Of a DNA stretch of 64,000 nt, positions 17,450 to 22,375 are shown piece after piece. The notes under the pieces were generated by a model. The model was given only the letters and a program-made list of their open reading frames with translations, did not search any database and had not been told where the DNA came from. This DNA is from Psilocybe cubensis. Taxonomy: Eukaryota. Each line of letters begins with the position of its first letter. Position 1 is the first letter of the stretch. The stretch is from the NCBI GenBank assembly GCA_017499595.2, contig CM039000.1:2294001-2358000 (forward strand). Direction: 5' to 3'. The position numbers and the translations under genes were made by a program.

Positions 17450-18332
17450 CTATAGCATATCCATGAACTCTTGTTCGGGCTCCTCGTATACGATGTCAGA
17501 AGAATCTTGGATCGCTTTCCCCTTTCCTTTCTGTTCGGTGTTAACCTCATTGCCTTTACCTGCTGCACGGCTGTAGTTTTTGCCTGCACTCTTCCCGGCA
17601 GAGTACTTTCGGATAGCAGTGCGATCGCCTTCAAATTTGCCATCACCTATCTTAAAGACTGCTCGGAGAACAGATTTGCCTCTCGTTTGGTAAGTAAGGT
17701 CGTCATCGTCATCCTCGGGTATGACTTCGTCTTGAACTTCGACGGTGCCTGTGATAATCTCAACGTTGATCTCGTCTTGTGGATACGGCAAAATCGGTGG
17801 AAGAGCGCATAATAGCTGCATTAAGACAGGGATAGCAGCACCCATTGCGCTCAGATGGAGTGTTTTATATCTACAGCGAAGATGAGACATTGCTATAAAT
17901 GACGGGTGAAAAGAAAACTTGCCCATCAACAAAAATGACATCTTTGCACCGGCGCATGTAAGCTCCCAGAGGAGTTTTACGAGTCAGACATATCATGTTT
18001 TTGCCTTCTCTGTGGCTAGAACGCGGGCCTGTGGCAGACACAGAAGCTGGGACAGTTGGGAAAGGTCTTGGAGGAGCAAGCTTGTTTATTCGTTTGGGAT
18101 TCTTTGAAACTTGGGGACTCGCAATATTGTATGCCATATCATTTACTTGAGTAGTTGGTTCATCTGTAGGTCCTTTTGCAGTTTCCGAGCGCACAACTTT
18201 AGCCAGGTGAGGCTCAACAACAGATGAAGATGGCATTGATGTACTCGGAACCGCCATGGTAGACAATTTGGGACGTTTTCCATTGTCGATAGCACCACTG
18301 GAGTCATGTTTTCTCTTTTTCGTAGCGTTCAT
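17450..18332 (-). CDS. POP7: RNase P/MRP subunit Pop7/Rpp20 (Alba-like)
   Basis: 'NMICLTRKTPLGAYMRRCKDVIFVDG|YKTLHLSAMGAAIP...TGTVEVQDEVIPEDDDDDLTYQTRGKSVL' fits the Rpp20 pattern; one GC-AG intron (17922-17871); N-terminal NLS KKRK. Confidence 0.8.
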
Positions 18333-18530
18333 AACCGTCAAAGTAGTAAATTTGTCGGAGCCGGCTGAAGGACGGAAGGTGACGAGATCGACGATACAAG
18401 CACAAACATTGAAAAAGCAAAAGCCCCGTGTCACGAAAATCGATCACTTCATCTTTCCCCTCAACCTTCGAAAAATCGGCTGTGTTTTCCTGGTATCACT
18501 ATCCAGGAAAAGCATACGTCGTCGCCCAAG

Positions 18531-20125
18531 ATGAGTACGGATGTCGCGGAGCAGAATATCCAGATGTGGAAGGTCAAGAAACTCATCAAGAGTCTTGACT
18601 CCGCCAGAGGGTGCGCTCACTTTTTATCGTCACCAATCTCTTGTCTGATTATGCTGTAATATACAGAGCTGGTACCTCTATGATCAGCCTTATCATACCC
18701 CCTAAGGTACTTCGCGATCGATTTGCGTGCGGACTTCGCTTTATTCCTCATATGTGTTCAGGATCAAATTTCCAGGGCGTCAGCTATGTTGACGCAGGAA
18801 TACGGAACGGCTTCTAACATCAAATCTCGAGTCAATCGTCTCTCCGTTCTTGCTGCCATTACCAGTACTCAGCAGCGTCTCAAGTTGTACAACCGAGTTC
18901 CCCCTAACGGTCTTGTACTCTTCGTTGGCACTATCTTGACAGACGAAGGCAAGGAGAAAAAAGTATCTTTCGACTTCGAACCCCACAAACCAATCAATAC
19001 GTGTGTAAATTTCACTCTTACTTTCTGTATCGCATAGCTTACGATGATTCTTTCAGATCTCTCTACCTTTGTGACAACAAATTTCATACCGAGGCATTGT
19101 CTGAACTATTAGAATCGGACTCCCGCTTCGGCTTCATTGTCATGGATGGTAATGGCACTCTCTTCGGTGTCCTTGCTGGTAATACCCGCGAGATCATTCA
19201 CAAGTTCACCGTTGATTTACCCAAGAAACACGGTCGTGGTGGACAGTCTGCTCTACGTTTCTCGCGTCTTCGTGACGAAAAGCGACACAACTATGTGCGC
19301 AAAGTTGCAGAACACGCAGTTCAACATTTTATTACCAACGACAAAGTCAACGTTACAGGTCTTGTTCTTGCCGGTAGCGCCGACTTTAAGACCGAACTCA
19401 GCCAGAGTGATATGTTCGATCAGAGGCTCGCCGCCAAAGTTATCAAAGTTGTTGATGTCAGCTACGGAGGCGAAAATGGCTTCAATCAGGTATGTTCGAT
19501 ATAAATCCTTTTTAGACGCATTGTTGACCTATTACAAATAAAACAGGCAATCGAACTGGCTGCTGAATCTCTTGCCAATGTCAAGTTTGTCCAAGAGAAG
19601 AAGCTAATCCAGAAATACTTCGATGAAATCAGTCAAGATACAGGCAGATATTGTTTCGGCATTGATGATACCCTCAAAGCATTGGAACTGGGTGCCGTTG
19701 AAACTCTAATTGTCTGGGAAAACCTGGATATCACTCGCTATGTGCTTCGCAATGCTGCTGGAGGTAAGCTTGGCCATGTGTGTATAGGAAATGATCTGAT
19801 CATATATTATCCAGAGGAAATCATTATCCATGCTAACAAGGATCAAGAAAAGGACCGTGAAAAGTTTATCGATAAATCCACAGGCCTCGAAATGGAACAA
19901 GCCACGGAACCCCAGTCCCTGCTCGAATGGTTCGCAGAAAAGTACAAAGAGTTTGGCGCCAATCTTGAGTTCGTTACCAATCGTTCCCAGGAGGGTGCTC
20001 AGTTCGTCAAAGGTTTCGGTGGTATTGGCGGTCTCCTCCGGTATAAGGTCGACTTCAACAACCTTACTTCGATCGACGAAGAGGACGACGACGAGTTCTA
20101 CTCTGATGACGACGGTGGTATCTGA
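18531..20125 (+). CDS. SUP45: Eukaryotic peptide chain release factor 1
   Basis: GTS loop (GAGTSMISL), [21 protein letters not shown], '[15 protein letters not shown]' and an acidic tail; stop TGA at 20123-20125. Confidence 0.99.
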
Positions 20126-20504
20126 CGTTTCTGCTGGCTCTTCGGAGCCCCGTCCACAAAGGGTACTTCGGGCGGGGCGGATGGGAGGTGTGGTGACTTT
20201 AGGCGATGCGGGGAATTCGAGGTCGATGATGGGACAGGACGCAGCATAGGAGATCAGAAGGGATTTCGGAAGATTGTCATAAGAACACAAAATCACAAAC
20301 AAGCTATGTCCAGTTATGGTCGACAAGCCATACCTTGGTCGTCTGCGCTTGTTAGGAAACTGAATTTGTCAAGACCCGTGGTATTGGTCAAACGTTTCAT
20401 ATCTGCGCGATTTTTCCTACCACTTAACATTTGTCATTGTCGATGCTAGGTATGTTACCATGGCATATGATTTATCCCTCATTTGCTGAACTATTATTTT
20501 GTAG
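20126..20504 (+). promoter_or_regulatory. eRF1 3'UTR readthrough/NMD element (leaky stop context, hairpin, open extension, 3'UTR intron)
   Basis: TGA-C; GGCTC-TTCG-GAGCC hairpin at 20136-20149; 107 in-frame sense codons to TAG at 20447-20449; intron gtatgt(20450)...gctgaac...tgtag(20504). Confidence 0.8.
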
Positions 20505-22375
20505 ATAATGTGTGTTATGAGTGTCTGAATTCTTTGGAACGGTCGCTTTGGCTTTCTCGATTTGCAACTCGTGTATTTCAATGTTTTAATGGACAAATGT
20601 CACTGTCTGTTTATTGATGCGTGATATAACTCTGGCACATCGTCTTCTCATAGGTCTCTGAATTTATAGTCACAAACCAACCTCGCAAAACCAGTGAAAT
20701 TTGCTAAATCATCAACAACATTTTGTCAATGGGTCGCTGGACGTTAAGCATTCACCTCTCTCTTGGTTTATCCCGCACTCGACAACTCCATCGTCGCAGA
20801 ATGTGAATCTTTTTTGGGAAATTGACTAGTATTCCTAGGTCCATAGAAGACCACGCTGCAGGGAACACAACTTCGTCCAAGCTCTTGTGTCCTTCGTACA
20901 ACGGCTCTATGGAAGGAATGACCGACAATCTATTTTCATCCTATACTGATCATGTTATCGATACAGATAAAGGTCTAATACGCCTAGCGGATCGGAATCT
21001 ATGAAAAAACATTGCCTTGCTTTCTATTGCCCGTGCTCCAAAAATTATTATGGACCCTCGAAAAGGGACTTTCTATACAGTAATGCGGCGTCTAAATTAC
21101 TTGTATCGGCGCAAAAGACGGTCTAAAATATTCCGAAGTACTCTGCATGGTTCACATGTGGTTCTGGCCCAAAAACAACTCGCGCAAGTACCATTAAATC
21201 CTTCCTTCATAATGATTCTTGCCATTGATCACTTTCATACTTGTCATATAAAAATACCTGAAATCAGCGCAGCTAGAGATGGCGCGGTGTCCAAGGTCTT
21301 CTCTGGGGAACCTGAGGGTTTTTTGCTCTTCGTCGATTCAGAACAGGGTGAAGGTCACACGATCCGCCTGCAATTTTAGACGAGGACTGACGCCTCGAAC
21401 TTGACATCCATCACAGTCATTGGCCCCCCAAAGGCGCAAGGACCGCTTGCTATTGATGCAACGTCGTCGCCTACGTTTGAAATGTTACAGGAATCATGTC
21501 AAATATTTTCCAAAATGTTTTTTTTGGTCGGTGTCATCCTCCTCAACCTCAGACGCAAAGTTGAGGGCGCGCTACAAATCATCACTTTGCAATGTTCATC
21601 GAAAGCGGCAGGAACACGCCCAAGGACCTTGAATCGATCGGGGATGGGCACGAACTACACATCATGATAACCTGGTGTGTCAGGCGAGTCCGATATGTTC
21701 TGTAGCCTGACATTGTCGATACTAACCGACCGTTCTGCATGATGGTCCGCTCCAAGTACCCCCCCTACCTTTGTTTGTCAGAGCCTGCATAGTATTTCGT
21801 AAGGACGGCGCCAACTTGTCCTTGGCATCTGGTCATGCCCTGCTGGAGAGCAGATAAGTCGCAACGCATACATTTTCAACAATCCGAGTTTACCGCAATT
21901 TTTGCATGTCGACCTGGAGTCAGGTCTACACTACATCCCAAATCAGTACGGGAAAAGACGCCGAATCCCTGTGGATATTCTTGTTTCGAAGGCTTTTGAC
22001 TTACAGATGCAGGTGGGACTGACATGTATGACCGCGATCTGTCCGTCGGTCGATGTTATGAATCACAGTGATTCTAGTAACGTAATATGCACGACTCTAG
22101 TCAGAGAGTGGGCAGATTGAGATCCCAGCGCTGCCCGTTCAGCCACCGTTGACCTACAACGTGAAGTGAAAGGTGAAATATAGTTGCATTCTGCGATTGG
22201 TATGACCTTGTGCTCAGGTCACATTTCATAAGTACCCCGGGGCCTCGATAGTGGATAATATAGGTTAAAATGATTCATTCAAGTCAACGTAACAGGTCAT
22301 AACTGTGGAGTCGTAAGTGTGTAAAGTACACAGATTGGTCGTTAGTCTGCAAACAGTCCAGTGTTCATATGGTCA

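Follow-up and report, generated by a model that had tools for sequence, protein, structure and literature searches.

A Probable Readthrough/NMD Autoregulatory 3'UTR with a Covarying Two-Hairpin Element in the eRF1 Gene of Psilocybe cubensis

Introduction

Does the messenger RNA (mRNA) of the release factor eRF1 carry, in a mushroom-forming fungus, a 3' untranslated region (3'UTR) through which the protein adjusts its own level? The question is raised by a 64,000-nucleotide stretch of the Psilocybe cubensis genome (GenBank assembly GCA_017499595.2, contig CM039000.1, positions 2,294,001 to 2,358,000 of the forward strand), hereafter the window, in whose numbering all coordinates are given. An earlier note, made from the letters alone, had pointed to an eRF1 gene whose leaky stop codon is followed by a long open frame ending at a 3'UTR intron. 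It read this layout as a switch in which normal termination exposes the mRNA to nonsense-mediated decay (NMD) and readthrough of the stop protects it. From splicing in RNA contigs and from the comparison of related lineages, we consider it likely that the eRF1 mRNA carries such a readthrough/NMD (RT-NMD) autoregulatory 3'UTR, with readthrough, NMD sensitivity, and feedback deduced from the plant and Neurospora systems.

RT-NMD 3'UTRs were defined and experimentally proven in plants by Nyiko et al. (2017; PMC5397192); what is said here of the plant system is drawn from that paper, which bears out the earlier note in that such a loop has been described for plant eRF1-1. In that scheme, the NMD element is a spliced intron more than 50 nucleotides (nt) past the stop or a 3'UTR of over ~375 nt, and a C at position +4 is the strongest single readthrough determinant. 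Only translating ribosomes dislodge the exon-junction complex (EJC), which occupies a position 20-24 nt upstream of the junction; raised eRF1 lowers readthrough and strengthens NMD. Spliced 3'UTR introns also trigger EJC-dependent NMD in Neurospora crassa, according to PMC10578600 and PMC6173133.

Results

The Stop Codon, the Open Frame, and a Spliced 3'UTR Intron

The plus-strand gene is eRF1 (Pfam eRF1_2, E 2.4e-46; eRF1_3, E 7.6e-16), and the joining of its exons yields a product of 439 amino acids (aa). Its frame ends in GGT ATC TGA, with the stop at 20123-20125 and a C at 20126, precisely the tetranucleotide named in the earlier note. Equally exact is the claim that the frame then stays open for 107 codons, up to a TAG that adjoins a splice donor (table 1); over the same interval, 20126-20446, the other two frames contain 3 and 5 stops. 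The chance of such an opening had been put at roughly 0.6%, a figure that matches the assumption of uniform codons (P = 0.0059). When composition is taken into account the event becomes rarer (0.0016-0.0033): P is 0.0022 in 20,000 mononucleotide shuffles of the 321 nt, 0.0016 when 20126-20640 is shuffled, and 0.0020-0.0033 when calculated analytically from the local or window composition.

The proposed 55-nt intron is found letter for letter, with gtatgt at 20450, a branch-like gctgaac at 20484-20490, and a tag ending at 20504. To follow its fate in RNA, we compared four of the five sequencing runs found for the locus, X1 and X2 (study P1) and X3 and X4 (study P2), over 18300-21299. The X1 contig (1843 nt) spans 18464-20636 and the X2 contig (1855 nt) 18460-20644; both are without six GT..AG segments, namely the five coding introns of eRF1 and 20450-20504. 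The joint in the 3'UTR was reported as 20446 to 20502 with a skip of 55 and a cut of +3, which is equivalent to the removal of 20450-20504 and the union of 20449 with 20505. X3 and X4 are colinear with the genome, with four single-base differences and none of these inside transcript exons. X1 and X2 are annotated only as "RNA?"; we take them to be transcript-derived because the six introns are absent there yet carried by X3 and X4.

The intron at 20450-20504 is spliced, in the contigs of X1 as well as X2, and these transcripts do not end before it. The spliced 3'UTR measures ~460 nt, and the RNA contigs bear out the claimed distance of 324 nt from the normal stop to a downstream exon junction. 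From the TAG at 20447-20449 to the contig end there are ~136 nt.

Conservation in Related Lineages

Metagenome contigs were scanned with the last eRF1 exon, which gave 598 pattern matches, 136 of them confirmed by tblastn; the best 80 of these were taken. The 80 loci (designated by L and a number) are relatives by sequence, with 68-94% identity to the 102-aa query. Clustering at 95% identity or more reduced the 77 directly walked loci and the window to 60 clusters, and the addition of L067 and L068, whose stops were placed by hand since the frame walk had entered an extra intron of the last exon, gave 61 distinct non-window lineages.

A stop could be identified in 79 of the 80 loci; it is TGA in every one of them and is followed by C in 78. 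The earlier note had named orthologs without an open extension as evidence that would speak against it. On the contrary, in 55 of the 61 lineages no other frame stays open as long after the stop as frame 0. The median number of open codons is 86 in frame 0, 35 in frame +1, and 15 in frame +2, and at least 48 codons are open in 57, 11, and 4 of the 61 lineages, respectively. Because third codon positions just upstream of the stop are nearly saturated with change (0.74 bits), the uniformly kept stop codon and open frame are, on this comparative evidence, under selection.

What is kept does not appear to be a protein sequence. The 3'UTRs of different lineages are unalignable past ~60-75 nt. Even where relatives are close, as L042, L054, L057, and L071 are, homologous bases are read in different frames owing to indels of 17, 1, 10, and 3 nt, and despite these indels frame 0 is open in each of the four. 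Such frame-shifting indels between relatives indicate that openness is maintained and not a peptide. The TAG that precedes the donor in L054 and L057 does not belong to frame 0, which there continues across the junction. The conservation of the early extension has no codon periodicity: its first 57 nt carry 1.14, 1.28, and 1.09 bits at codon positions 1, 2, and 3, against 1.70, 1.82, and 0.74 bits in the last 180 nt of the coding sequence. A Pfam search of the window's 107-codon extension gave no domain match. The alignment of relatives that the earlier note had called for thus finds the open layout conserved across 61 lineages and the extension peptide not, and an extended eRF1 protein is most likely a by-product.

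Does the open frame of the relatives also reach an intron? Splice-site position weight matrices were trained on 50 coding introns of these loci, and GT..AG candidates were scored without regard to frame; the predictor is weak and was therefore used for frame-to-frame contrasts only. It ranks the window's proven 3'UTR intron first, with a score of 14.9. There were 48 usable loci with at least 420 nt downstream, that is, 61 rows (the 60 clusters including the window, and L067; L068 was unscored) minus 5 resembling complementary DNA (cDNA) and 8 short ones. After the top candidate of each had been removed in silico, the first stop was located in every frame. In frame 0 it lies at most 50 nt upstream of the predicted junction in 41 of the 48 loci (median +7.5 nt; 30 of 35 at intron scores of at least 12). 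The same holds for only 11 of 48 in frame +1 (median -150 nt; 7 of 35) and 4 of 48 in frame +2 (median -207 nt; 2 of 35). The frame-0 stop falls within 2 nt of the donor in eight loci (the window, L003, L010, L018, L022, L025, L033, and L062), and in many others frame 0 passes the junction and stops 1-114 nt beyond it. The coincidence of stop and intron emphasized in the earlier note is therefore recurrent (8/48) but represents one variant, given the many frames that cross the junction.

Sequence comparison also provides independent support for a 3'UTR intron from a second lineage. L042 is a cDNA-like contig whose coding part has no introns (exactly 906 nt for 302 residues). It is without a 53-61 nt segment that is present in the genomic loci L054 and L057 at the end of the extension (269-329 after the stop) and is bounded there by GTATGT and CAG or TAG. 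As 3'UTR introns of Cryptococcus are generally poorly conserved in position (PMC5006051), the retention of the one in eRF1 is of note.

A Covarying Two-Hairpin Element behind the Stop Codon

The first 55-60 nt after the TGA are 75-91% identical across lineages, and the remaining UTR is not conserved. In a MAFFT alignment of 61 distinct sequences (A1), the spacer between the stop and a first hairpin is exactly 10 nt in 60 sequences and 11 nt in L047; the G at +11 is invariant and the T at +10 nearly so. Hairpin 1 is paired in 99.7% of cells, with C:G changed to U:A in 8 sequences and a loop of 4-10 nt. Hairpin 2 bears the loop motif GGGTAC at 20161-20166 (RGGGYACGYC across relatives); in the MAFFT register its pairing reaches 77.8% of cells, with double changes in 6 of the 7 pairs. 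RNAalifold applied to the whole MAFFT alignment recovers hairpin 1 only, and hairpin 2, there specified by hand, is recovered by RNAalifold run clade by clade. It is out of register in both the MAFFT and the model-fitted alignment for two clades, L001/L009/L020/L052/L056 and L072-L080, which lowers its paired share to 78-79%; folded separately, these clades adopt the same two-hairpin plan.

Taken together, the two hairpins have standard pairs in 87.9% of 793 cells; a shift of the 3' partners by 1-3 columns lowers this share to 36-57%. Double changes number 42 cells, in 7 of the 13 pairs, and the covariation score was reached by 0 of 500 column shuffles, with a similar outcome on the model-fitted alignment. 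The most distant locus, L068, has an unrelated hairpin of 7 base pairs at the same distance from its stop, with the loop motif kept.

The window and the 80 loci (367 kb, both strands) were searched with a covariance model derived from A1. The model gave one match per locus, at the eRF1 stop, as follows by construction from sequences that built the model, and no second match in the 64-kb window. The only other rows were the true stop of L068 (E 0.25) and one stray match (E 0.62). Against Rfam, 19900-20800 gave no matching family at E up to 1, only two unrelated sub-threshold hits. Covarying pairs and a fixed short distance to the stop, the base characters of a structured 3' readthrough stimulator, are both found here, so that the element would qualify as a putative one, stimulation itself being presumed from this likeness.

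Directly past hairpin 2, at 20176-20200, there is a G-rich tract with GGG/GGGG runs, found at the same place in most loci. It could pair alternatively, or it could join the 3' arm of hairpin 2 in a G-quadruplex. Frame-specific openness is not explained by G-rich composition alone.

Features of the Locus and Its Surroundings

The features described are collected in table 1. Contig ends are no proof of a poly(A) site. A second conserved block, TGTAT-rich and GTTTAAATG-like, lies at ~20573-20600, ~40 nt before the RNA contig ends, and similar blocks stand in L042, L053, L054, and L057 ~70-130 nt past their 3'UTR introns; the block at 20573-20600 may be a polyadenylation element.

Table 1. Coordinates of the eRF1 coding region and of the features in its 3'UTR.
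Feature	Position	Strand	Basis or remarks
eRF1 coding region	18531..20125	+	exons 18531-18610, 18667-18706, 18762-19000, 19057-19489, 19547-19763, 19815-20125 (stop included)
Stop TGA with C at +4, leaky tetranucleotide context	20123..20126	+	sequence; TGA kept in 79/79 and C in 78/79 related loci
Readthrough extension (putative), 107 sense codons	20126..20446	+	no conserved peptide, no Pfam match
Spacer from stop to hairpin 1, 10 nt	20126..20135	+	alignment A1
Hairpin 1, GGCTC / TTCG loop / GAGCC	20136..20149	+	RNAalifold on A1
Hairpin 2, stem CCGTCC / GGGCGG, abutting hairpin 1	20150..20175	+	covariation, clade-wise RNAalifold
Next in-frame stop TAG, final 3 bases of exon	20447..20449	+	present in spliced RNA
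3'UTR intron, 55 nt, gtatgt...gctgaac...tag	20450..20504	+	spliced out in X1 and X2; present in the colinear X3 and X4
Terminal 3'UTR exon	20505..20644	+	ends of X1/X2 RNA contigs

Upstream of eRF1 lies a divergent gene, a 190-aa minus-strand open frame at 17871-18443. X1 and X2 have further RNA contigs in the 18300-18384 area, whose ends (18384 and 18370) are ~80 nt away from the beginning of the eRF1 transcript. Opposite the region that encodes the C-terminus of eRF1 and the beginning of the extension, an antisense frame of 220 codons free of stops spans 19706-20368 (minus strand) and is probably a by-product of composition. Among the related loci, L071 retains both hairpins, and its extension has no stop over the 67 or more codons up to the contig end. 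The 1249-nt contig of L015 turns into repeat-like sequence (CCGGATAAAA-type) at 700-900, directly past the last eRF1 codon, and is possibly a chimeric assembly or the site of an insertion.

Discussion

The splicing and comparative evidence supports the RT-NMD interpretation put forward in the earlier note, with the functional loop itself argued by analogy. When eRF1 is plentiful, ribosomes would terminate at the UGA and the EJC would stay ~20-24 nt upstream of the junction. The ~460 nt of 3'UTR would go untranslated, and the eRF1 mRNA would undergo UPF1-dependent NMD. When eRF1 is scarce, a near-cognate transfer RNA would decode the UGA more often. The two abutting hairpins, which would stand at the mRNA entrance of a ribosome with the stop in its A site, probably help in this; such a placement is the usual geometry of recoding stimulators. 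The readthrough ribosome would translate the 107-codon extension, strip the junction complex, and terminate at the junction UAG, with ~136 nt of transcript left. An mRNA cleared in this way would escape NMD and yield more eRF1.

Set beside the scheme of Nyiko et al. (2017), the locus has the NMD element (a spliced intron 324 nt after the stop and a 3'UTR of ~460 nt), the +4 C (TGA-C, kept in 78/79 loci), and a next in-frame stop placed at the intron (the TAG at 20447-20449 is the last codon of the exon, and 41/48 loci agree relative to a predicted intron). Its relatives conserve the layout and not the peptide. The CARYYA hexamer that follows the plant stop is absent.

Several points weigh against the RT-NMD reading. 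The hexamer after the TGA is CGTTTC in the window, outside the CARYYA consensus (among the 61 lineages it is CGGTTT in 19, CGGTAT in 18, CTCGTT in 9, and others in the rest), and the bases preceding the TGA are not A-rich. L071 (874-877) is the sole lineage with TGA-A, and L015 is without a stop after its last eRF1 codon and was excluded from the stop counts. The 61 lineages are related, so that the counts given above are not independent events. The RNA support consists of assembled contigs from one study, in which minor intron-retaining forms are invisible. The intron predictor separates poorly, with a median of 15.2 for true introns against 9.8 for the best reverse-complement control, whose 90th percentile is 13.7. 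In 7 of the 48 loci the top predicted intron lies far past the frame-0 stop; six of the seven have a compatible lower-scoring candidate, that of L017 showing the donor/acceptor pattern of its clade, and L021 has none. The folding energy of the region is ordinary, with z of +0.26 over 140 nt and -1.51 over 50 nt, where 11 of 200 shuffles fold as well. Moreover, the minimum-energy fold of the window sequence is an extended hairpin 2 (20147-20178) that takes three bases of hairpin 1 and destroys it. A literature search for EJC-type NMD in Agaricomycetes found no paper. Finally, readthrough, NMD sensitivity, and dependence on the eRF1 level are carried over from other systems.

The extended fold may also be informative. 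Its three extra pairs are paired in 86.9% of cells, and in the L072-L080 clade both pairings change together. Judging from this pattern, extended hairpin 2 and hairpin 1 may alternate as a two-state element; the joint change represents a single evolutionary event.

Could another account suffice? Intron-dependent NMD might act alone and keep the eRF1 mRNA low, as first reported for N. crassa, with readthrough giving no protection. The hairpins would then tune termination kinetics or UPF1 recruitment, bind a protein, or stabilize the RNA. The spliced 3'UTR intron 324 nt after the stop speaks for this account, and stop-adjacent elements can modulate NMD without readthrough, as the literature on retroviral stability elements documents. 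However, it leaves unexplained that frame 0, and only frame 0, is open up to the intron in most lineages despite frame-shifting indels, as well as the fixation of TGA-C in 78 of 79 loci, and we find it rather unlikely. Chance might also be at work, with an ordinary 3'UTR intron next to an accidental open frame in G-rich sequence. The G-rich sequence past the hairpins does lower stop frequency, and many genes were inspected for the earlier note. Yet such an opening has a chance of 0.2-0.3% even with composition allowed for, frames +1 and +2 close early, and the pattern is repeated in 61 lineages. We rejected coincidence as contradicted by the reach of frame 0 to the intron (41/48) and by the longest-frame count (55/61), and leave it a very slim chance.

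Other accounts accept that the UGA is recoded and assign a different purpose to it. Readthrough might produce a functional, C-terminally extended eRF1 isoform, the intron being incidental. The first 19 codons of the extension specify a similar peptide in many lineages, and functional readthrough extensions are known in fungi (cryptic peroxisomal targeting, as referenced in PMC5397192). Against this, the conservation of that segment has no codon periodicity and is explained by base-pair covariation; further on there is no alignment past ~60 nt, indels shift the frame, and no Pfam domain is present. The window's extension ends in ...HCRC, unlike the tripeptide that signals import into peroxisomes. 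The extended plant product, in turn, is inactive and not conserved (PMC5397192). On balance, an isoform of this kind seems distinctly improbable. Alternatively, the UGA could be recoded as selenocysteine under the direction of a downstream structure, and a UGA followed by a conserved stem-loop would fit. However, the Rfam scan of 19900-20800 at E up to 1 found no selenocysteine insertion sequence (SECIS) or other relevant family, and the element lies 10 nt after the UGA and not in a distal position. We know of no use of selenocysteine in Dikarya, and this explanation is scarcely credible.

The RT-NMD reading places the locus next to known systems. It shares with eRF1-1 of Arabidopsis and seed plants the eRF1 gene, a leaky stop with +4 C, a spliced 3'UTR intron more than 50 nt past the stop, and a layout conserved across a clade in which the extension peptide is not. 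In Arabidopsis the next in-frame stop lies less than 25 nt upstream of the intron, compared with 0 nt in the window, and the stop-to-intron distance is 130 nt compared with 324 nt. The plant signal is a nearly invariant CAATCA, of CARYYA type, whereas here the hexamer is CGTTTC (CGGTWT in relatives) and is accompanied by the covarying two-hairpin structure; plants also have a second, unregulated eRF1 paralog. N. crassa erf1 (Zhang and Sachs 2015; Kurilla et al. 2020) is likewise a fungal eRF1 mRNA with a spliced 3'UTR intron and, by the title of the paper, is autoregulated through readthrough and NMD dependent on that intron. Neurospora is an ascomycete, unlike the fungus studied here. The circuit in the mushroom is thus at most a further instance of the known RT-NMD kind, and Kurilla et al. 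(2020) reportedly proposed similar circuits in many fungi.

More distant parallels concern the structure and the logic. Viral and Drosophila genes have readthrough stimulators in the form of stem-loops or pseudoknots located a few nt past the stop. The element described here resembles them in being a stable structure supported by phylogeny at a fixed short distance (10 nt) past a leaky stop. It differs in being cellular and fungal, in residing in a release-factor gene, and in comprising two abutting hairpins with a conserved loop motif; its role as a stimulator is putative. PMC5397192 refers to Firth et al. (2011) for structured 3' stimulators of readthrough. The same paper mentions bacterial prfB (RF2), where a release factor likewise senses its own activity at a stop in its own mRNA. 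There, the active protein arises from a +1 frameshift at an in-frame UGA, whereas in the mushroom the protein is the product of normal termination, and the proposed role of recoding is to protect its mRNA.

Have mushroom-forming fungi, then, evolved a dedicated structured recoding signal, in place of a linear hexamer, that sets the readthrough level by which the eRF1 mRNA escapes NMD? We give this proposal an even chance. If it is correct, the signal may switch between two states, with the terminating ribosome resetting its conformation. Neither a basidiomycete eRF1 3'UTR nor a structured element after an eRF1 stop turned up in literature searches, and as far as these searches and Rfam show the covarying two-hairpin signal is new; Kurilla et al. 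(2020) may cover it.

Release-factor homeostasis in eukaryotes is known experimentally from only two systems. The present locus and the 61 related lineages extend the RT-NMD architecture, as a probable one, to mushroom-forming fungi and add a feature absent from the plant system, a compact and phylogenetically supported RNA structure immediately after the stop. If a dedicated signal is indeed involved, it would be a cellular, non-viral fungal readthrough stimulator that has no Rfam family. Two questions become testable in these organisms, namely whether an RNA structure tunes fungal readthrough and whether a 3'UTR frame is selected purely for the clearance of a junction complex. For annotation, eRF1 gene models in these fungi should include the 3'UTR intron and a note on recoding.

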